Part shown: piece after piece, positions 3,946 to 59,117 of the stretch | How the letters are laid out: every line of letters starts with the position of its first letter | How positions within the stretch are numbered: position 1 is the stretch's first letter | IMG/VR virus record: IMGVR_UViG_3300014913_000007 | Span: 32,001-96,000 of that record | DNA: 64,000 bases | Source of the DNA: a virus | Strand: one strand, 5' to 3' | Notes under the pieces: generated by a model | Told to the model about the DNA's origin: nothing | What the model saw: the letters and a program-made list of their open reading frames with translations, nothing else | The model's database searches: none | Program-made: the position numbers and the translations under genes

Positions 3946-5133
3946 ATGACAGTTTTTAAGTTTAAAAAAGACAATATGAAAGTCCCATGTTTTATATGGC
4001 ACAATATGCGAACTTTTGATAAACAGGCATTGCAGCAAATAATTACTGCATCTAAATTACCTTTCATATTCCATCACACCTGTGTAATGGCTGACGGGCA
4101 CAAAGGGTATTCATTACCTATAGGAGGCGTAGTGGCCTGCTTAGGAGTAGTGTCTCCAGCTATGGTAGGTTTCGACCAAGGATGCGGTATGTTAGCTGTG
4201 AAAACAGGAATAAAGATTACTGAATTGAATAGAGAACTGTTAATTCGAATAAAAAAGTTAATAGAAACCCATGTTCCAGTAGGATTAGGTACTTATAACC
4301 AAACTCCACAGGAGTGGGAGGGATTTAACAATACACCAGATGATGTGGTAATTCAGAAACAACTACAATCTGCACGTTTCCAGTTGGGATCACTTGGATC
4401 GAATAATCACTTTTTAGAGATACAATCAGGTTCTGATGGTTACATTTGGTATATGATTCACTCTGGAAGTAGAAATCTAGGACATAAAGTAGCTACCCAC
4501 TACAACAAACTGGCCTTAAATTTAAATAAAAAATGGCATTCAGATATAAAAAGATTAAAAGGTGATGAACCTATGTCTTTCTTACCAGTAGACACTCAAG
4601 AAGGAGTGGATTTTATAACAGCTCTAGATTTTACATTAAAGTTCGCTCAAGCTAGTAGAGAGAATATGTCTAATAAGATTCAAGGTTGTATTACACAGGT
4701 ACTTAAATGTACATTTGAAAAACCTATAAATATACACCATAACTATGCAGCTCTAGAGAATCATTATGGTAAAAACGTTTGGGTACATCGGAAAGGGGCT
4801 ACTTCTGCTAAGAAAGGGCAATTGGGAATCATACCTGGATCTCAAGGCACTAAATCTTTTATAGTTAGAGGAAAGGGAAGTCAGGAGTCATTCACTTCCT
4901 GTAGTCACGGAGCTGGGAGAATTCTTGGAAGAAAGAAAGCAAAACAAACACTAAAGTTAAATGAAGAGTTGAAATTACTAGAAGATAAGGGAATCTTACA
5001 TTCAATAAAATCCAAGGCTAACTTGGATGAGTCACCTTCCGCTTACAAAGACATAGATATAGTCATGAAAGCGCAAAAAGACTTGGTAGATATAGTTGTA
5101 GAATTATCCCCTTTAGCAGTAGTTAAGGGCTAA
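3946..5133 (+). CDS. rtcB: RtcB family RNA 3'-phosphate/5'-OH ligase
   Basis: DGHKGYSLPIGG, VGFDQGCG, NH, HSGSR, HHNY, HRKGAT, SHGAGR motifs. Confidence 0.95.
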   Translation: MTVFKFKKDNMKVPCFIWHNMRTFDKQALQQIITASKLPFIFHHTCVMADGHKGYSLPIGGVVACLGVVSPAMVGFDQGCGMLAVKTGIKITELNRELLIRIKKLIETHVPVGLGTYNQTPQEWEGFNNTPDDVVIQKQLQSARFQLGSLGSNNHFLEIQSGSDGYIWYMIHSGSRNLGHKVATHYNKLALNLNKKWHSDIKRLKGDEPMSFLPVDTQEGVDFITALDFTLKFAQASRENMSNKIQGCITQVLKCTFEKPINIHHNYAALENHYGKNVWVHRKGATSAKKGQLGIIPGSQGTKSFIVRGKGSQESFTSCSHGAGRILGRKKAKQTLKLNEELKLLEDKGILHSIKSKANLDESPSAYKDIDIVMKAQKDLVDIVVELSPLAVVKG

Positions 5134-6436: not shown

Positions 6437-7771
6437 ATGGAACTTGAAAAAGTATTAAAATTACCTAATATACTCACCTTAAAAAAGATATTAGGTGTAA
6501 CTGCTGATTTACACCTAGTAGGTGGAGCTGTACGTGACATTCTTCTAGATAGAACCCCTAAAGACTTCGACTTTGCCACAGCTCTAACACCTGATGAAAT
6601 GATTCACATGCTTCAGATCAATTCAATAAGATGGATTCCGGTAGGTATTAGACGAGGTACGCTTGCTATAGTAATTAAGGGCGAAGTGTTTGAAGTTACA
6701 ACTTTTAGAGATCCTAGTCAAGAAACACAATTTACTAGCTCTATTGAAGAAGATCTCCCAGCTAGAGATTTTACAATTAATGCCATAGCTATCTCATTAA
6801 ATACTGGTAAATTAGTGGATCCTTTTAGGGGTGAAGAAGACTTAAAAAATAATGTGCTCAAAGCTGTAGGGAATCCAGAGAGGCGGTTTATGGAAGATCC
6901 TCACAGGATTTTAAGAATGCTACGGTTTGGTATAGGTCAAAATAGAAAAGTTGATCAAAAAACTAAAGTAACCGCCTATAAACTAGCTACATTAGTGGAA
7001 GGAATAAGTATTGAAAGAATAAGAGATGAGTTATCAAAAATACTAATAACCGATAATGCTTCAGAGGCATTTAAAGAACTTCTGGAAATGGGAATTCTTA
7101 ATATGTTCATACCTGAGCTTGTCTCTACTGTAAATATAAAACAAAATAAATGGCACTTATGGGACGTTTTTACACATATATTAAAAGTAGTAGATCTATG
7201 TCCAAAAGATAAGATAACTAGATTAGCAGCACTACTACATGATGTAGGTAAACCTCTATGCATATCTGAAGATGAAAATGGTAGGCACTTCCTGGAACAT
7301 GAGACTGTCAGTGCGAAGCTAGCAGAAGTTGTACTTAAGAGGCTTAAATTTCCAAGCAGGGAGATTGCAGAAGTAGTTACCTTGATACGAGAACACATGC
7401 GACCCATAGAGAACTGTAAGGGAAAAGCTATACGTAAAACTATGGTGAAGGTAGGAGATTTATTTCCAAAGTGGTTGGATCATAAGAAAGCTGACAAACT
7501 TGGTGGAATTAAAGGTTTAGATCCTGAAGCATTTGAAGTAGAGTGGAATGCGTTTTTAGCTAAAGTTACCCAAGAGCAGGAGAGGAAGCAAACTAGTAAG
7601 TTTGATAGTCTGGAAATATCTGGTAGAGATATTATGGCATTAGGAGTAGCTCAGGGACCTAATGTAGGAATTATCCTTTCAAAGCTGCAAGAGATAGTTA
7701 TAGATGATCCAGATTTTAATCAAAGAAGAGTGTTGATAGTCTTAGCTAGGAGAATTATCAATGGTCAGTAA
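6437..7771 (+). CDS. cca: tRNA nucleotidyltransferase (CCA-adding family) with HD domain
   Basis: VGGAVRD, DFD, RDFTINA, EDPHRILR, ERI, LLHDVGKP. Confidence 0.9.
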   Translation: MELEKVLKLPNILTLKKILGVTADLHLVGGAVRDILLDRTPKDFDFATALTPDEMIHMLQINSIRWIPVGIRRGTLAIVIKGEVFEVTTFRDPSQETQFTSSIEEDLPARDFTINAIAISLNTGKLVDPFRGEEDLKNNVLKAVGNPERRFMEDPHRILRMLRFGIGQNRKVDQKTKVTAYKLATLVEGISIERIRDELSKILITDNASEAFKELLEMGILNMFIPELVSTVNIKQNKWHLWDVFTHILKVVDLCPKDKITRLAALLHDVGKPLCISEDENGRHFLEHETVSAKLAEVVLKRLKFPSREIAEVVTLIREHMRPIENCKGKAIRKTMVKVGDLFPKWLDHKKADKLGGIKGLDPEAFEVEWNAFLAKVTQEQERKQTSKFDSLEISGRDIMALGVAQGPNVGIILSKLQEIVIDDPDFNQRRVLIVLARRIINGQ

Positions 7772-11863: not shown

Positions 11864-13450
11864 ATGAAACACATTAAAGATAAGTGTATATCAATATTAA
11901 ATAAATTTAAGGGCAACCCAAATGTAAACTTCAATCCCTTAGACTTTACTCCCAATCCAATTATAGATATTGATTTAAAAGGTAACATTATATATTTGAA
12001 TCCAAACATACAAGAACTATTTCCATCACTATCGCAAGAATCTTTAAGTCATCCATACTTAGAGGATATAGTGAAATGGTTAAGAATGGTACAAAATGAT
12101 ATGTATGCAAAACCACACACTAAATCATGGTTTAGAGAAGTGAAGGTTGATAGTCAATATTATGAACAAGTATTTCAAAAAACACAGAAATCAGGAATAA
12201 CTAGAATATATGGAACCAATATAAGTAAAAAAGTAAATAAGCTTAACAAACTGACTGAGGAAAGGAACCAAGCAAACGAATTAACTAAGTTAAAAAGTGA
12301 GTTCATAGCTAATATGAGTCATGAAATTAGAACTCCTATGAGTGGTATTATAGGAATTGCCGACATTCTACTTGAAACAGATCTAACAAAAAGTCAAAAT
12401 AGTTACTTAGCAATGCTAAAAGACTCTTCTAAACATCTTTTATTTATACTTAATGATTTGCTGGATCTCTCAAAAGCAGAAACTGGCAAATTGGAGGTTC
12501 TAAAAGAAAAATTTAACTTTAATAAATCTATCGGACACTTGGTAGCTCAATTTAAAGTTACTGCTGAGGAAAAAAATCTACAATTTGAGACAACTATAGA
12601 CTCGAATATACCTAAAGAATTGGTTGGTGATTCTGTAAGACTTACACAGATACTGATTAACTTGTTAGGTAATGCTTTTAAGTTCACTCCTGAGAGTGGA
12701 AGTGTATTATTAGAAGTATTGATAGAAAAAGAATTAAAAGATTCAATAATTCTTCAATTTAAAGTACAAGACTCCGGTATTGGAATACCCCTAAATAAAC
12801 AAAAAGATATACTAAAAGCATTTATTCAAGCAGACAGTTCAGTTACCAAGAAATATGGAGGTACTGGATTAGGATTAGCTATTACTAGTTCCCTGTTGGA
12901 GTTAATGGATTCTAGCCTAAAATTAGTAAGTACTGAAGGTAACGGATCAACTTTTTCCTTCTCACTCAAAGTATTGAAACCTGAAAAAAAAGATAAGGAA
13001 GTACCAGTAAATAATGAAGACTTGAAAAAAATACTAAATAAAGCAAAAACGGTTAAAAATACATATGACATATTGATTGTGGAAGATGATGAAGTTAATA
13101 AAAAGATAGCAAACTATGTCCTCGCAGAGGCAGGACATACAGTTAAAACTGCATCAAATGGTTTGGAGTGCATGGAATTAGTAAAGAAACATGTATTTGA
13201 CTTAATACTGATGGACTGTCAAATGCCTGAAATGGACGGATTTGAAGCTGTAACTGCAATACGTCAAAGGGAACGTATACTAGGTGTAAGAGTACCTATT
13301 ATAGCCCTTACAGCCCTTGCTATGAAAGATGATAAAGACAAATGCCTTGAAGTGGGTATGGATGTATATATTAGAAAGCCATTCGAAAAGGTTAAGCTAC
13401 TTAAGATGATAGAAAAATTAATTGAAAAATCTAGAAAAATTGACAAATAG
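11864..13450 (+). CDS. cytoplasmic hybrid histidine kinase (PAS-HisKA-HATPase-REC)
   Basis: ANMSHEIRTP H-box, NLLGNAFKFT, DSGIG, GGTGLGL, receiver DCQMPEMDG. Confidence 0.95.
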   Translation: MKHIKDKCISILNKFKGNPNVNFNPLDFTPNPIIDIDLKGNIIYLNPNIQELFPSLSQESLSHPYLEDIVKWLRMVQNDMYAKPHTKSWFREVKVDSQYYEQVFQKTQKSGITRIYGTNISKKVNKLNKLTEERNQANELTKLKSEFIANMSHEIRTPMSGIIGIADILLETDLTKSQNSYLAMLKDSSKHLLFILNDLLDLSKAETGKLEVLKEKFNFNKSIGHLVAQFKVTAEEKNLQFETTIDSNIPKELVGDSVRLTQILINLLGNAFKFTPESGSVLLEVLIEKELKDSIILQFKVQDSGIGIPLNKQKDILKAFIQADSSVTKKYGGTGLGLAITSSLLELMDSSLKLVSTEGNGSTFSFSLKVLKPEKKDKEVPVNNEDLKKILNKAKTVKNTYDILIVEDDEVNKKIANYVLAEAGHTVKTASNGLECMELVKKHVFDLILMDCQMPEMDGFEAVTAIRQRERILGVRVPIIALTALAMKDDKDKCLEVGMDVYIRKPFEKVKLLKMIEKLIEKSRKIDK

Positions 13451-13501: not shown

Positions 13502-14650
13502 ATGTCCAACTTTTCAGCGCCCGTAGTAGAATTCACTATTGAAAAACACCCCAATGCCGACTTACTCTCTATAGCACACGTAGAAGGATGGCAATGTATT
13601 GTAAAGACTGCAGATTTTAAAAATGAAACATTAGGTGTATATGTACCCTTAGACGCTGTAGCAGATAAGGATCATCCTCTACTTGACTTCATGAACGGAA
13701 AGAAGGTAAAAACTATAAAGCTTAGAAAAGTAATCTCTCAAGGTATCTTACTTCCATTGTCCACTGTGGAAAAGTTCGTAAGAAGTAAGGGGTACCAGGA
13801 GACCCTCCAGGTAGGAGATGATTTACATACACTTCTAGAGCTTAAAAAGTGGGAGCCTGTATTTAAGCCTCAAGGACTAAATGTCTCTGGTGGTAGTGAG
13901 GCTTACCTAGAATCTCCTGGATGGATGGGTAAGTATACTGACATAGAAAATTGGAATAATCACCCTAATACAATAAAAGAGGGAGAAATAGTGAGTATTA
14001 CCGAAAAGTTACACGGATCCAGTGCAAGATACGGAATCGTGGATGGTGAATTCTACGTAGGTTCTAGGAATAGAATTTTAAGGTTAGATCCATACATCTC
14101 AAGAATGGATCAACGTAAATGGGATTCACGACCTTTCTTTCAAAGATTCAAGGATTTTATATTGAGAAAGAAAGTTAAACTTACTACACCTAGGGAAACA
14201 GTCTGGACTAAGATAGCTAGAAAACAAGGAATACGTAGTAAACTAAGGTATTTATCCTTTAACTTTGCGGAAGGTGGTAATGTAGCTATTTACGGTGAAA
14301 TAGTTGGTCCTGGGGTACAGGATCTTGAATACGGACTAGAGGAAGTAGATCTATACCTTTACGATATAAGAATTGAAGGTAGGAGTGGAGATAAATACAT
14401 AAGTCCTCCAGAGTTTAGGGAAATGGCAGGTAATATCAAGCTAAAAACTGTACCACTATTGAAGGAAGGCCCTTTCGAATTAGCTGATTTGGAGCTTAGG
14501 AAGGGTAAAGACACTATTAATACTAAGCATGTGCGAGAAGGTATCGTTATAGAGCCTACAAAGCTTCAGTTTGACAAGGGATTAGGTAGGGTAATACTTA
14601 AGAGGGTATCAGAAAATTACCTTCTTAGAAAGAATGGGACTGACTATTAA
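13502..14650 (+). CDS. RNA ligase, DRB0094/Rnl5 family
   Basis: HPNADLL OB-like N-terminus, TEKLHG (motif I), YGE, REGIV, terminal K. Confidence 0.9.
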   Translation: MSNFSAPVVEFTIEKHPNADLLSIAHVEGWQCIVKTADFKNETLGVYVPLDAVADKDHPLLDFMNGKKVKTIKLRKVISQGILLPLSTVEKFVRSKGYQETLQVGDDLHTLLELKKWEPVFKPQGLNVSGGSEAYLESPGWMGKYTDIENWNNHPNTIKEGEIVSITEKLHGSSARYGIVDGEFYVGSRNRILRLDPYISRMDQRKWDSRPFFQRFKDFILRKKVKLTTPRETVWTKIARKQGIRSKLRYLSFNFAEGGNVAIYGEIVGPGVQDLEYGLEEVDLYLYDIRIEGRSGDKYISPPEFREMAGNIKLKTVPLLKEGPFELADLELRKGKDTINTKHVREGIVIEPTKLQFDKGLGRVILKRVSENYLLRKNGTDY

Positions 14651-28587: not shown

Positions 28588-30393
28588 TTGAAAGTAAGAA
28601 AAACCTACATTAGAAACTTATCCAAAACAATTAAAATAATTGAAACTGAGACTAAAAAAGAAGTATCCACTGACTTAACTACACTAGAAACAGATATTTC
28701 AGAAATAACTTATAAATCTTGGGTACTAGAAACTTACATCGTAGGTATCAATGAGGTCTTTGATCTAGTGTTAACTTATTCAAAGAATGAGGAGGAAGCT
28801 ACAGCTCTAAAAAACGACTTGTTTAGAGAAACTATAAAGATAAATCCCTACCTAGATCCAAATGACTTGTATATAGATGTAAATCAAATTACACTAACTA
28901 AAACTCCAAATCAACTAGTAGAGTCTAAACATTGGAAAACAAATGAAGATACCTCTAATATACCTATTATATCTGACTTCCACAAATACTTTGAAATGTC
29001 TAAACAAGTTAGAGGACACGACCATTCAGTAGAAACTGCGTTCAGTGAAGTTCTTAACATGGGTATAAAAATAAGAATATTTAACAAAAAAATTAGGGAC
29101 TCACTTGTATTTGGATTTGACCCTAAATCAGAGCAAGCTGTTAAATATCATACTATTGTAACGTGTGTAGATAGCCTACATGATCTTCTTACACTAATAA
29201 AAAGTGATCCTAATAAGAAACAAATACCCTTCTCACATATTTTGGAAGATCTGTTTAACTGGTCTATATTGCATAATCCTTTTCTTGATTTAAAGATCAA
29301 AGATATTAAGAAGATAAACAAAACTACTAAAGAGTTTGTCCAAGCAGTAGGTAAGGAAGATACTAAAGAAGTTACCAAAAAAGGCAGAACACATATAAGC
29401 CAAGTACCTAGAGAGGAGATACTAGCTTTAGAGGAAACACTATTAAGTCAGATATTCGGGCAAGATACTGCAGTAAAAGCCGTATCTGATGCCTATAAGA
29501 GAGCCTTTAGTGGAGTTAAGAATCCTACTTCTCCAATAGGGTGCTTCCTGCTCTATGGAGGAACTAGTACTGGTAAAACTGAGTTAGCTAGAGTGTTAGG
29601 TAAACTGCTAACGAAGAGCCATAGAGGGCTTATAAAGATACCTTGTAATACCCTCCAGGCTGCCCACAGTGTGGCTACGTTGATCGGTGCCCCTCCAGGG
29701 TATGTAGGCTACGAAGATGGCTGTCTGGCCGAAAATATGAAGGATAGCAGCTTCAAGGTGGTACTCTTCGATGAGCTAGATAAGGCTCACCCTAATATAT
29801 ACGATCTAGTACTTGAGATGATAGAAGAAGGTAAACTTTTAATCTCTAATGGTGAGGTACTAGATTTTACTCAATGTCTAATACTATTTACCAGTAACAT
29901 GGGTCAGCAGGCAGCTCAAAAGGGTACTTCTAAGAGTGGATTCTCCTCTAACATAGGAAATAAAGATAAGCTAAAAGCAGATGAGTACTTAAGGATTATA
30001 GAGAGAGACATAAAGCCTGAGTTCCTGGCTAGGTTAAACGGAAAATTCTACTTTCCAGATTTAAGTGATGAAACTCTAGAAAAAACAGGGAGAAGATACT
30101 TAGAAATAAGAACTGAACACCTTAAACAGAATAAAATTCACTTTTCATACCCTGATGCCTTACCTGAGGTAGTTCTAGAACGCTGTAGTACAGCGAACCC
30201 AAAGGGATTTCATGCTAGAGAGTTAAACAATTATATAGAATCTGAAATAATACAGAAGTTAGGTAACTATATGATTAGATCGGAGCTTACAGGGAAACGT
30301 AATGTATCCATAGGGTTATCTGTAACACCTACTGGTTACACTTTTAGGAAGAAAGCTAAGAAAGTAGAGAAAAGAACTAAAAAGAAAGATTGA
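28588..30393 (+). CDS. Clp-type AAA+ ATPase (ClpA/B D2-like)
   Basis: IFGQ, GGTSTGKTE, LIGAPPGYVGY, LFDELDKAHP, PEFLAR. Confidence 0.9.
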   Translation: MKVRKTYIRNLSKTIKIIETETKKEVSTDLTTLETDISEITYKSWVLETYIVGINEVFDLVLTYSKNEEEATALKNDLFRETIKINPYLDPNDLYIDVNQITLTKTPNQLVESKHWKTNEDTSNIPIISDFHKYFEMSKQVRGHDHSVETAFSEVLNMGIKIRIFNKKIRDSLVFGFDPKSEQAVKYHTIVTCVDSLHDLLTLIKSDPNKKQIPFSHILEDLFNWSILHNPFLDLKIKDIKKINKTTKEFVQAVGKEDTKEVTKKGRTHISQVPREEILALEETLLSQIFGQDTAVKAVSDAYKRAFSGVKNPTSPIGCFLLYGGTSTGKTELARVLGKLLTKSHRGLIKIPCNTLQAAHSVATLIGAPPGYVGYEDGCLAENMKDSSFKVVLFDELDKAHPNIYDLVLEMIEEGKLLISNGEVLDFTQCLILFTSNMGQQAAQKGTSKSGFSSNIGNKDKLKADEYLRIIERDIKPEFLARLNGKFYFPDLSDETLEKTGRRYLEIRTEHLKQNKIHFSYPDALPEVVLERCSTANPKGFHARELNNYIESEIIQKLGNYMIRSELTGKRNVSIGLSVTPTGYTFRKKAKKVEKRTKKKD

Positions 30394-43726: not shown

Positions 43727-43773
43727 GCAGGTAATAAATATAGGGATACTCCTATAATTAGCCTGCTTTTTTT
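43727..43773 (+). terminator. promoter-proximal intrinsic terminator / attenuator hairpin
   Basis: GCAGGTAAT..TATAGG/CCTATA..ATTAGCCTGC followed by T7. Confidence 0.65.
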
Positions 43774-43950: not shown

Positions 43951-44025
43951 GGCGGGAAGGACGTTGGCTTCCAGTAGTGTCTCATAAGCATTATTACGCT
44001 GGTTCAATTCCAGCTTCCGCAACCA
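43951..44025 (+). tRNA. tRNA-Met(CAT), 1:72 mismatch (fMet/Ile2 identity uncertain)
   Basis: anticodon loop CTCATAA, TTCAATT T-loop, CCA. Confidence 0.75.
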
Positions 44026-44110: not shown

Positions 44111-44185
44111 GCTCCGGTAGCTTAACTGGTAAGAGCGTTCGGTTGAAGCCCGAAAGATGGAGATCGACACCTCTCTGGAGCACCA
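44111..44185 (+). tRNA. tRNA-Phe(GAA)
   Basis: cloverleaf, loop TTGAAGC, CCA. Confidence 0.85.
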
Positions 44186-56240: not shown

Positions 56241-57794
56241 TTAAGCAATTATTCCTGAGGCTGTTACCCAATTACTACCACTATACCAAATTGGTAATCC
56301 TAAAGTAGTATCAAAGTAGAGTTCTCCTAATAGAGGTAATCCAGGTCTTTCCCCTGTGATACCTGCACTAGGTGTAACTAGAACGTCTAAGGCATCTTTT
56401 ACTGTAGATCCTGATACTGTAGAATCATTAATAGTAATAGAAGCAAAACTCTCTATAAAAGTATCATTTAAAGAAGTGGTATTACTATCATCTAAAGTAT
56501 ACCCATTCTCAATTAAGTAATCTACGGTATTATTATAACAAACATTTTTCTTTAAGTTACATACAGAACCATTCTCAAGTCTTATACCTCTATTACAGTT
56601 ATAACAAGTATTACCGATTATCGCTGCCATTCCATTAGCACTGCCACCGTCTAAAGATATACCCTCACCCGAACACTCAGAAACTAGGTTATCTTGGAGA
56701 ATACTAACACTAGTGACATCATCTATATCTATACCTTCAATGCAGCGTTTGACCCTATTTCTTCTAATTATTGCTGAGTTTCTGTAGCCAGAAATAGTTC
56801 CTAACTGATCTAACTTTATCCCTTCGCCTCCATTACCATCATCACAATTATTAATGTAACAATCTTCTACTAGCATGTTAATTGAATTCTGTAAATGAAG
56901 ACCTCTGCCCAGACTTGCAGAATCAATAAAACAATTCTTTATAAACGCAGAGTTAGAACCTCTTAAACAGATAGCTGCTCCTTCTATCTTATCTGTAGTG
57001 GCCTTATGTAAGTGACAGTCAATAATGGAGATATTACTACTCATTTCAGATATAGAAGGTGCAGTTGCATAATCTGATCCATTATAGTAGGCTAATAGTA
57101 TTGCACTGCCCTGGGCATTTCTTATAGTAATATTGTGAAATATTAAATCATTAGCTTTAGAATGATTGTCTTTAAATGTTATTGCGGAGCCTTTACCATT
57201 CTGGTAGGAGGTAGTGCAATCTTCTAGTATTAAGCTACTCAGTAAGATATCAGCTGCCCCATCTTCTACTTGAATACATTGCTGACCTGTAATAACTGGA
57301 AAATATCCATCTGTTACCTTTACTTTAAATTCTACTCCTGAGGGTATAGTAATTGGACTATAAGTAGCACTTGTCCTAACTTCAAGTACTTGGTCATCAG
57401 TAAGCGAGTTAATTGCCAAATTTAAATCATTTGATCCAGTAGTGGTTAAGATAACGTCTGGTATCTCAAATCTTAGTTCCTCAATGTCTTGTAAAATACT
57501 TGAGTATTCTCCAGCCTCTACTGAAGCTATTAACTGATCTACATATAACTTAGTTGCAGCTTCAGAGTCTGTGGTGGGGTTTGGTAATTGACTAAGTATT
57601 TGATTATTAAAGTCTACAGCATCCTGAGGAGGATATTTGTACCACTCATCTGCTGCAGCTCCAGAACTTGTAGCTCCAGAACTTGTAACTGCCTCTGAAT
57701 CTCGGTATCTACCTCCAACAGCTAATAGTTCCTCTCCTCGCTGAATTACTCTAGATTCAGGTGTTACTTGTGGATCTACTTTATAATTTGACAT
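56241..57794 (-). CDS. MSNYKVDPQV-module protein with right-handed beta-helix (tailspike/depolymerase-like)
   Basis: I.N/GI repeats typical of parallel beta-helix; C-terminal RP..P..GELYFDTTL..W module. Confidence 0.75.
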   Translation of the reverse strand: MSNYKVDPQVTPESRVIQRGEELLAVGGRYRDSEAVTSSGATSSGAAADEWYKYPPQDAVDFNNQILSQLPNPTTDSEAATKLYVDQLIASVEAGEYSSILQDIEELRFEIPDVILTTTGSNDLNLAINSLTDDQVLEVRTSATYSPITIPSGVEFKVKVTDGYFPVITGQQCIQVEDGAADILLSSLILEDCTTSYQNGKGSAITFKDNHSKANDLIFHNITIRNAQGSAILLAYYNGSDYATAPSISEMSSNISIIDCHLHKATTDKIEGAAICLRGSNSAFIKNCFIDSASLGRGLHLQNSINMLVEDCYINNCDDGNGGEGIKLDQLGTISGYRNSAIIRRNRVKRCIEGIDIDDVTSVSILQDNLVSECSGEGISLDGGSANGMAAIIGNTCYNCNRGIRLENGSVCNLKKNVCYNNTVDYLIENGYTLDDSNTTSLNDTFIESFASITINDSTVSGSTVKDALDVLVTPSAGITGERPGLPLLGELYFDTTLGLPIWYSGSNWVTASGIIA

Positions 57795-57864: not shown

Positions 57865-57893
57865 TTGACATACGTTAATATCTGTACTATAGT
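57865..57893 (+). promoter_or_regulatory. promoter of tRNA array C
   Basis: TTGACA-N17-TATAGT. Confidence 0.75.
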
Positions 57894-57899
57894 ACATTT

Positions 57900-57983
57900 A
57901 TGATGTTATCTATTTGTAACATATCTTTTGACTTTGCCGTATTCAACGGTACAGGAATCACCTCGGGAACTGGCACACATTAA
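57900..57983 (+). CDS. leader peptide C (MMLSICNISFDFAVFNGTGITSGTGTH)
   Basis: ATG at the expected +1; G/T-rich C-terminus matching tRNA-Gly and tRNA-Thr. Confidence 0.7.
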   Translation: MMLSICNISFDFAVFNGTGITSGTGTH

Positions 57984-58074
57984 GTGTAAACTGTCAGGAT
58001 CCATCTAACAAATAAGTTTAAAATTTAATCTGGATACTGGCGGTACTAATATGATCGTATTTGGAGTTTGTTAC

Positions 58075-58410
58075 ATGAGTAGATCACGTAGAAAAAAACC
58101 TATCATCAGACACGGTGGTAGTGATAAGTGGTGGAGAAGGAACTACAATCGTAAACTAAGAAGAGCTAATAAGGTACTCTTACAGAAACAGAAGGAAGAT
58201 TTCCTACCTAAATTAGTTAGAGAAGTTAGTAATGTTTGGGATAGTAGTAGAGATTGTACTTTTAGATTTACTTATCTAAAGGATGGTAACTTATGTCATC
58301 TAAGTAACGTTGGATTCTGGGCTGATTTTTATGGAGTATCTATAGAAGAGTATATAGAGAAAGAAAAGAAAGAAGCTAAGGAGGAATACAACAAATGGAT
58401 GAGGAAGTAG
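58075..58410 (+). CDS. basic phage protein (MSRS.R..P type)
   Basis: GGAG RBS before ATG 58075. Confidence 0.6.
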   Translation: MSRSRRKKPIIRHGGSDKWWRRNYNRKLRRANKVLLQKQKEDFLPKLVREVSNVWDSSRDCTFRFTYLKDGNLCHLSNVGFWADFYGVSIEEYIEKEKKEAKEEYNKWMRK

Positions 58411-58556
58411 AGTACAAGAAAACTAACAGGGAGAAGGTACAGACTCCTAAGTTAGGTATATTCTATTGCACATGTGATAGAGCTTTAGTAGGAAAGGGGA
58501 GGAAGTGTAAGTTTTGCGGGACTAGAGATCCTGGTAAAACATTTAAAAAATAATAT

Positions 58557-58629
58557 CCTGGAATGAGGTTAATGGTTAGCCTGTCTGACTTCCAATCAGA
58601 ATGCGTCAGTTCGAATCTGGCTTCCAGGA
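58557..58629 (+). tRNA. tRNA-Gly(TCC)
   Basis: loop CTTCCAA, TTCGAAT; atypical acceptor stem; no CCA. Confidence 0.8.
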
Positions 58630-58634
58630 CTCCT

Positions 58635-58707
58635 GCTCGAATAGTATAAGTGGGCAATACACTGGTTTTGTAATCCAGAATTTTCGGATCGTGGCCGAAT
58701 TCGAGCT
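58635..58707 (+). tRNA. tRNA-Thr(TGT)
   Basis: loop TTTGTAA; atypical T-loop; no CCA. Confidence 0.75.
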
Positions 58708-58748
58708 AATTATTTGACATTACTTAGTATTTATAATATAATAGTTAA

Positions 58749-59117
58749 ATGTCCAAACTTAAAGTCTGTAAACAATGTGGAAAAACTTTCCCCAAATCAG
58801 GTATGTACTTAGGTAAGTGAAGGAACTTCTGTAATAGGAGTTACTTTCTTTTATGCTCCTCAACTAGGTTGGCCAGACAGTATTTACTGGAGAAACATGG
58901 AAACAAGTGTTTTCAATGTGAAGTAACCGGATGGAATGGACGGCCAGGACCTGTAGTTTTAGATCATATAAATGGAAACCCTTATGATCATAGTTTAGAA
59001 AATATTAGATTGCTCTGTTGTAATTGTGATGCACAAACTAATACATATAAAAACAAAAATAAAGGTAAAGGCAGGCACACTAGGAGATTACGATACAAAC
59101 AAGGTAAAAGCTACTAA
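58749..59117 (+). pseudogene. HNH endonuclease with in-frame TGA
   Basis: ATG 58749 is in frame with the HNH part (LDHING..LCCNC); TGA at 58818-58820. Confidence 0.65.

Follow-up and report, generated by a model that had tools for sequence, protein, structure and literature searches.

Several described systems let the translation of a short upstream open reading frame (ORF) or the state of a tRNA act on the genes that follow. In the attenuators of amino-acid operons (thrL with its Thr and Ile codons, the multivalent ilv leaders, trpL and hisL) a short promoter-proximal ORF carries a run of regulatory codons, and alternative RNA pairings form in and past this ORF. In the translational attenuation of erm and cat genes (ermC, ermB; PMC8274638, PMC5118997) the leader ORF precedes a gene whose Shine-Dalgarno sequence and start region are tied up in a conserved helix, and the occupancy of the leader by a ribosome is expected to free them. 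The Salmonella mgtL and mgtCBR leader ORFs (PMC3641672) and E. coli tnaC are short ORFs which sense charged tRNA or the position of the ribosome without an intrinsic terminator, and the T-box follows the same logic in that genes for the translation supply answer to the state of a specific tRNA. Here we describe a viral locus that resembles all of these in part. The locus, unit C (57865-58707), lies on a 64,000-nucleotide stretch of DNA (bases 32001-96000 of the IMG/VR record IMGVR_UViG_3300014913_000007, in the following “the window”), and consists of a 27-codon ORF rich in Gly and Thr codons, two small protein genes, a tRNA-Gly and a tRNA-Thr.

Phage tRNA genes are now seen as codon supplements and as countermeasures to tRNA-cleaving immunity (PMC10264068, PMC11464382). 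The tRNA region of phage T5 is similar to the region considered here in that several promoters, small ORFs and HNH genes are interleaved with the tRNA genes; in a crude scan of this T5 region none of the upstream ORFs proved to fit the tRNAs, the lowest P being about 0.01 once the best among several ORFs had been chosen. To our knowledge the control that phages exert on their own tRNA arrays has hardly been described. Mixed tRNA-protein operons exist in E. coli, where the tRNAs of thrU-tyrU-glyT-thrT-tufB are co-transcribed with a protein gene, and we know of no such leader in this operon. Full-text literature searches yielded no publication that describes leader peptides upstream of tRNA genes or tRNA arrays in any organism.

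We propose, with a rough probability of 0.55, that unit C works as a translational switch of the erm type, set by how ribosomes occupy the Gly and Thr codons.

Organization of unit C

Unit C begins with a sigma-70-type promoter (57865-57893) whose hexamers TTGACA and TATAGT are separated by 17 nt and agree with the consensus in 11 of 12 positions, with TGTAC just before the −10 hexamer. The leader ORF follows at 57900-57983 (27 codons, stop codon TAA) and contains a stretch in which eight of ten codons specify Gly or Thr (57948-57977). Past its stop codon a hairpin is found (57990-58044, with arms at 57990-58003 and 58031-58044), then the gene of a basic protein of 111 residues (ORF111, 58075-58410), the gene of a basic, zinc-ribbon-like protein of 52 residues with four Cys (ORF52, 58395-58553), tRNA-Gly with the anticodon TCC (58557-58630, 57.1 bits) and tRNA-Thr with the anticodon TGT (58635-58707, 46.7 bits). 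All of these are on the plus strand. The unit is ended by the next plus-strand promoter (58714-58742, 12 of 12 consensus positions), which heads an HNH endonuclease gene, and no tRNA other than the two mentioned precedes it. A preliminary description of this DNA had already named the leader with its Gly/Thr-free first part and its mixed codons, the hairpin, the small basic protein gene and the restriction to Gly(TCC) and Thr(TGT) downstream; each of these was recovered in our analysis.

The genes are packed tightly. The start of ORF52 overlaps the stop of ORF111, tRNA-Gly begins 3 nt past the ORF52 stop, tRNA-Thr lies 4 nt behind tRNA-Gly and the next promoter 6 nt behind tRNA-Thr; in the relative L075 the tRNA begins just 1 nt past the protein gene. 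There is no gap in unit C long enough to hold a promoter between the genes and the tRNAs. A separate promoter for the tRNAs, which the preliminary description had held against a common unit should it exist, was sought: no consensus-grade promoter occurs between the leader and the tRNAs, the only promoter-like match inside reaching 9 of 12 positions and lying within conserved coding sequence. The tight packing and the lack of a consensus-grade internal promoter support the reading of leader, two small genes, tRNA-Gly and tRNA-Thr as one putative operon.

Composition of the leader

Residues 1-16 of the leader contain no Gly or Thr, while residues 17-26 contain eight, encoded by a mixture of codons (GGT, GGA, GGA, GGC for Gly; ACA, ACC, ACT, ACA for Thr). 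The N-terminal half of the peptide is hydrophobic and is followed by this Gly/Thr-rich tail. In the six-frame translation of the whole 153-kb genome at least eight Gly or Thr within ten residues are found at one place only, which is the leader. Among 512 small ORFs that start with ATG and span 20-45 codons, two (the leader included) have a Gly+Thr share as high as that of the leader, placing it in the top 0.4%.

The leader ATG follows the −10 hexamer at a distance of 6 nt in the window and of 9 nt in the relatives, and no Shine-Dalgarno sequence is present for the leader. For this reason its mRNA is probably leaderless in the window and would have a 5' untranslated region of 3 nt in the relatives, if transcription starts where predicted.

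Conservation in relatives

Relatives of unit C were reached through ORF111 homologues in a large protein collection, which led to contigs from other metagenomes. Full-length homologues number four, namely the window, L072, L073 (with L074) and L075; a further one, L150, is cut at its 5' end. The Gly/Thr-rich leader occurs in five lineages, the window and four others, with flanking ORF111 homologues that are 48-69% identical. A complete 5' region is available for L072, L073/L074 and L075, where the ORF111 homologues share 55-69% of their residues with that of the window. In these the promoter is invariant, an ORF of 27 or 28 codons with a Gly/Thr-rich tail occupies the same place, and a hairpin past the leader stop is followed by the ORF111 homologue. 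In L150 (48% identity) the leader tail has 10 Gly or Thr in 11 residues, and the flanks differ. The Gly/Thr runs of the relatives are equivalent to that of the window, and each is the sole such run on that strand of its locus. The leader stop codon is TAG in the relatives and TAA in the window.

The substitutions have the pattern of a coding sequence. Over the last 13 codons the window and L075 differ at 1, 1 and 6 sites in codon positions 1, 2 and 3, respectively, and between homologues synonymous codon changes are at least as numerous as non-synonymous ones. The two non-synonymous differences from L075 are an Ile and a Ser of the window, both of which are Thr there. Across all four full-length homologues the leader frame is the only one that stays open.

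The tRNAs of the relatives follow the same scheme. In L072 tRNAs for Gly(UCC), Gly(GCC), Thr(UGU) and Thr(GGU) are present, with codons for each of them in the leader; L075 shows Gly(UCC) and Gly(GCC) before the contig ends, and L073/L074 shows Gly(UCC). The Thr tRNA is thus seen in the one relative array that is complete (L072), the downstream DNA of the other relatives being partial. Because relatives with downstream DNA carry Gly tRNAs, and the complete array Thr tRNAs in addition, the association of a Gly/Thr leader with Gly/Thr tRNAs is, as judged from these sequences, conserved and not peculiar to this genome. The observations support the view that the leader is a conserved coding element and is matched to the Gly and Thr tRNAs of its own unit.

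Direct searches of IMG/VR for relatives were fruitless. A protein scan with ORF111 as query returned no matches, and one with the neighbouring beta-helix protein matched just a 40-residue tail. The pattern of leader tail plus hairpin had no match in viral or metagenome contigs.

We further report some features of the relatives that stand apart from the leader. On the 2.6-kb contig of L073 a bacterial class A RNase P RNA (L073:131-465, 188 bits at a gathering score of 100) lies 1.4 kb upstream of the Gly/Thr leader; no RNase P RNA was found in the record to which the window belongs. In L074 an ORF with the GGQ domain of release factors (L074:833-1114) lies behind the tRNA-Gly and an odd structured element; the ORF matches the models of RF1, RF2, PrfH and ArfB, all below their cut-offs. 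Odd tRNA-like elements are found between the tRNAs of the relatives (L072:955-1140, L075:870-960, L074:716-825). They have acceptor-like ends and a loop with CTA beside TGT, receive no Rfam call, and are called by ARAGORN only at low threshold and inconsistently. A suppressor-like tRNA might conceivably be involved.

Leaders of the other tRNA arrays

All 23 tRNA genes of the record lie inside the window, where they form four same-strand arrays starting at 44111 (array A), 53554 (array B), 58557 (unit C) and 60494 (array D). Near-consensus promoters are rare, with only 10 in the 153-kb genome, and the four of them that contain TGTAC head the four tRNA arrays. The upstream DNA was read for all arrays, and a short ORF was found behind each of the four array promoters. 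Every array leader is 1.8- to 2.5-fold enriched in the amino acids of its own array, shows no enrichment for those of the three others, and ranks within the top 0.4-0.8% of the 512 small ORFs for its own set.

A common spacer motif, which reads AATCAAACAA, then GGGTAGAAG, precedes the first tRNA in arrays A and D of the window and in a D-type array of L072 (43908-43950 and 60447-60493 in the window, L072:2975-3012). Exact occurrences of GGGTAGAAG in the window are confined to these two places. In the fold of array D the early leader codons pair with the shared spacer motif. The D-type array of L072 (L072:2852-2965) agrees with the window arrays in promoter layout; its leader is homologous and contains many His, Lys, Arg and Asp residues, and its two GC-rich hairpins show compensatory changes relative to those of the window. 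It has additional tRNAs for Met and Ile(TAT), and its leader contains Met and ATA codons. IMG/VR scans with the spacer motif of arrays A and D and with the array promoter pattern gave 15 and 54 matches, respectively, none of them with tRNAs.

Array A shows some peculiarities. A tRNA-Met(CAT) before it (43951-44025) escapes both Rfam and ARAGORN with its default settings, and is found at a relaxed threshold; the array A leader has five Met codons. The promoter of array A is immediately followed by a strong hairpin and seven T, which together resemble a terminator (43727-43773). An 11-codon ORF overlaps the 5' arm of this hairpin, and the 39-codon leader lies downstream of it.

RNA structure and ribosome modelling

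The four full-length homologues were folded with RNAalifold, and pairs were counted. Three conserved helices resulted, with 95.8% of the cells paired overall and changes on both sides at five pairs, compared to at most one when the 3' partners were slid by 1-3 columns.

The first helix is the hairpin past the leader stop. It has 8+4 predicted pairs in the window and 13 in the consensus of the four homologues, 3 of the 13 being compensatory and 96% paired, with an AU-rich loop of about 27 nt. Its stem is AU/GU-rich and not GC-rich, a U-tract behind it is absent in all four homologues, and a terminator scan lists nothing at this place. On these grounds the hairpin is not an intrinsic terminator.

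The second helix is a small hairpin with a 4-bp stem (57937-57949, plus strand), just before and into the first Gly codon, which is 100% paired and in which one pair is changed on both sides.

The third helix is of long range. Its core joins leader codons 6-9 (57915-57926) to the GGAG and the start codon of ORF111 (58063-58075), and if more downstream sequence is added it extends to a pairing of 57898-57905, which includes the leader ATG, with 58085-58091, codons 4-6 of ORF111. The upstream strand thus covers 57898-57926 of the plus strand, with the leader start codon and codons 6-9, and the downstream strand falls within the translation start region of ORF111 (58063-58091, plus strand; GGAG at 58063-58066, ATG at 58075, codons 1-6). 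Of the 13 plus 7 pairs 94% of cells are paired, and the core contains one compensatory change, a G-C pair in the window that is A-U in the relatives. According to this model the Shine-Dalgarno sequence and the start codon of ORF111 are sequestered in a conserved helix, and both starts, that of the leader and that of ORF111, would be closed in the folded RNA.

The last Thr-Gly-Thr codons of the leader (57970-57975, plus strand, segment X) can pair with the 5' arm of the hairpin past the stop, and on direct reading X resembles the 3' arm of this hairpin. In folds of the growing transcript all four homologues show X paired with the 5' arm for as long as the 3' arm is missing, and a ribosome stalled on the Gly/Thr run would cover X. 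Folds of truncated transcripts show that the long-range helix closes only once the start region of ORF111 is transcribed. An erm-like chain of four segments (X:Y and 3' arm with the sequence before the Shine-Dalgarno, as against Y:Z) was considered as well and judged energetically weak next to the long-range helix. In Rfam searches, run over 40000-64000 with E up to 1 and over the entire window with the gathering score as limit, the only matches in unit C were tRNAs, and no T-box appeared.

The effect of a translating ribosome was modelled in the four homologues by keeping a stretch the size of a ribosome unpaired at one leader codon after another and computing the openness of the ORF111 start region. 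Its mean unpaired probability is 0.13-0.36 without a ribosome and increases to approximately 0.4-0.6 with a ribosome on codons 3-13. The start region reopens if a lead ribosome stands on one of the first six to eight Gly/Thr codons and a second one waits 10 codons upstream.

The two small proteins

ORF111 has a pI of 10.0, 16 Lys or Arg among its first 40 residues, and the N-terminus MSRSRRK. The conserved N-terminus of the relatives places its start at 58075 and not at the upstream in-frame ATG at 58051. In an alignment of 18 members the family is conserved over the N-terminal 60 residues or so, with 15 invariant columns; MSRS, NRKL and VS are invariant and E-VSNVW is nearly so. Pfam, PHROG and NCBIfam contain no match, and its nearest neighbours in the ESM Atlas are unnamed viral clusters. 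A structure prediction, as proposed in the preliminary description, gave an AlphaFold model of mediocre quality (pLDDT 69), for which Foldseek returned no PDB match at E 0.001 or better. The protein might be a co-regulated factor related to translation, as suggested in the preliminary description. A lambda N-like role as antiterminator was considered for ORF111 and dropped, its sole hint being the arginine-rich N-terminus.

Among 64 metagenome loci with a member of the ORF111 family 14 have same-strand tRNAs, and the gene often starts less than 100 nt after a tRNA. It likewise stands beside a tRNA in L076, L080, L147 and L148. The family thus recurs in phage tRNA arrays, and a functional link would be one of guilt by association. 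In L147 a 41%-identical long-form homologue (L147:1450-1874) is followed within 2 nt by a tRNA-Thr(TGT), and no Gly/Thr leader is seen upstream of it. Distant relatives of ORF111 (L076-L079) also lie near a lone response-regulator gene.

Copies of ORF52 that are 62-69% identical are present in L072 and L073, and the gene is absent in L075. A homologue search with ORF52 found the query itself only.

Genomic setting

The IMG/VR record has 153 kb, is estimated to be 78% complete and has a G+C content of about 34%. No similarity to any cultured phage was found at the DNA level. The neighbourhood is phage-like: the genes between the arrays include LAGLIDADG and HNH endonucleases, and unit C is adjoined by the gene of a beta-helix virion protein on the minus strand (56241-57794). 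The HNH gene behind the next promoter (58749-59117) looks decayed, consisting of ORFs of 23 and 82 codons that together match just residues 119-196 of the intact 203-residue homologue at the same place in L072.

The window further encodes RtcB (3946-5133, E 5e-100), a CCA-adding enzyme with an HD domain (6437-7771), an RNA ligase with an OB fold (13502-14650) and a B12-type ribonucleotide reductase. The first three fit a tRNA/RNA repair set of a phage that faces tRNA-cleaving defences. Given these enzymes, damage or shortage of tRNA is a plausible selective theme for the phage. Two more of its genes, at 11864-13450 and 28588-30393, code for a hybrid histidine kinase with a receiver domain and for a ClpB-like AAA protein.

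Discussion

The proposed switch would work as follows. The leader could be a translated sensor, the distal half of which is written in codons read by the tRNAs of its own unit. In the folded RNA the first 30 nt or so would pair with the Shine-Dalgarno sequence, the start and the first codons of ORF111, shutting both starts. A ribosome loaded on the nascent 5' end might keep the helix open only while it, or a follower queued behind it, covers the early codons. When Gly and Thr codons are decoded fast the ribosome would be gone before the ORF111 start region is made, and the RNA would close. When Gly-tRNA or Thr-tRNA is scarce the lead ribosome may stall on the Gly/Thr run, which lies one ribosome length downstream of the masking segment; the follower would then be held on the mask and ORF111 and ORF52 be translated. 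Their translation might carry transcription into the abutting tRNA genes, or protect the transcript.

Several points weigh against this proposal. With just one ribosome on the Gly/Thr codons the start region stays at baseline in the thermodynamic model, and the proposed mechanism therefore needs ribosome queuing or steric effects. Lacking a Shine-Dalgarno sequence, the leader must start leaderless or nearly so, and its transcription start is a prediction only. The leader of the window has drifted, with Ile and Ser where relatives have Thr, and half of its codons for each amino acid (two of four for Gly, two of four for Thr) do not pair in direct Watson-Crick fashion with the encoded UCC and UGU anticodons. 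One must also keep in mind that the fold of 57900-58080 is no more stable than that of shuffled sequence (z = −0.22), that the helices rest on four full-length homologues which are mutually related and give small covariation counts, and that the coupling of tRNA output to ORF111 translation is an assumption.

Other explanations have to be weighed. The short ORF could be a device for the folding, coupling or stabilization of the ORF111 mRNA, its Gly and Thr being a by-product of nucleotide needs such as GGN-ACN repeats or mimicry of the 3' arm of the hairpin. The Gly/Thr codons indeed overlap segment X and small helices, and the closed start region under a single stalled ribosome would be in agreement with such a role. 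This does not explain why the leaders of the three other arrays, which are unrelated, are each enriched in the tRNA set of their own array; furthermore the substitution pattern fits a constraint on coding, and L150 keeps the Gly/Thr run within different flanks. We consider this explanation unlikely, while giving it some weight.

Rho-dependent attenuation of the mgtL/tnaC kind is an alternative that we rate as rather improbable. Here the position of the ribosome would set X:Y against Y:Z and hence the loading of Rho on the spacer or on untranslated ORF111 RNA, so that transcription would stop before the tRNAs. A leader with a codon run and no intrinsic terminator suits this idea, alternative pairings exist, and the Salmonella mgtCBR leader is a precedent for codon sensing (PMC3641672). 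On the other hand the 91-nt spacer is not C-rich (12 C compared to 18 G) and is largely structured, so that no C-rich loading site for Rho is evident; the conserved masking of the ORF111 start is left unexplained. Rho could also act together with the translational switch through polarity, or instead of it.

Transcription attenuation of the trp/thr type, with the hairpin at 57990-58044 as terminator and with stalling on Gly/Thr codons favouring an antiterminator, is in our opinion quite improbable. It is suggested by the codon-run leader directly before a conserved hairpin and by the pairing of X with the 5' arm in four homologues, which makes the two pairings mutually exclusive. The missing U-tract in all four homologues, the AU/GU-rich stem with its loop of about 27 nt and the empty terminator scan speak against it. 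Of the interpretation given in the preliminary description the tRNA-matched leader, now seen to be conserved, and the single operon are retained. A reading of the hairpin as a terminator is given up: without a U-tract and without a GC-rich stem it does not make a trp-type attenuator. The helix that is predicted to hide the ORF111 start is the better-supported output.

That the ORF encodes a bioactive Gly/Thr-rich peptide unrelated to tRNAs, e.g. the precursor of a modified peptide, is very hard to maintain: its hydrophobic half and Gly/Thr tail are superficially like a leader-core precursor, but no genes for modification enzymes are seen nearby and the other arrays are headed by the same promoter-plus-leader design with compositions matched to their arrays. 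A chance ORF is hardly credible, since short ORFs are common in AT-rich DNA (by our own estimate approximately 13% of random 27-codon stretches are open) but this run is unique, kept in five lineages and part of a pattern of four arrays.

Beyond the translational switch in unit C we put forward, tentatively and with considerably more reserve, a surveillance of the tRNA supply per array. In front of each array a leaderless mini-gene in the codons of this array might act as the gate, and unit C might be a co-transcriptional one-shot translational switch, in which stalled and queued ribosomes would hold the long-range helix open and so turn on the two small proteins and the Gly and Thr tRNAs when the decoding of Gly and Thr fails in the host, e.g. 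after an attack by a tRNA-targeting defence. If true, such a circuit would feed back on itself, one and the same tRNA being both sensed and produced, and it would be a new layer of counter-defence beside RtcB, the CCA-adding enzyme and the RNA ligase. Already for a single unit, a leader read by ribosomes and matched to the tRNAs that follow would sense decoding capacity directly and return this signal to the supply of tRNA. With its length of about 200 nt the element lends itself readily to reporter tests.

Comparison with known systems

Compared to the attenuators of amino-acid operons, unit C has no intrinsic terminator and a leader without Shine-Dalgarno sequence that is predicted to be leaderless. 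It would regulate tRNA genes and two small proteins instead of biosynthetic enzymes, and the quantity sensed, the decoding by a tRNA, would coincide with the product. The T-box binds the tRNA directly via a specifier codon without a ribosome, in contrast to the ribosome-read leader proposed here, and the Rfam search gave no match to it. With respect to mgtL and tnaC, unit C differs in its downstream genes and in having no evident C-rich Rho loading site.

The closest likeness is to erm and cat. There the cue is a drug-bound ribosome with arrest by the nascent peptide, and here it would be slow decoding of Gly and Thr codons. The masking strand of unit C lies upstream of the stall site, so that a queued ribosome seems to be needed, and the start of the leader is predicted to be closed as well. 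To the known designs unit C would add array leaders that appear to be leaderless mRNAs and a widespread, unnamed family of small basic proteins that travels with phage tRNA arrays. It would also show that the codon-matched leader as input can be coupled to a translational output, the masking of a start region, and not to a terminator.

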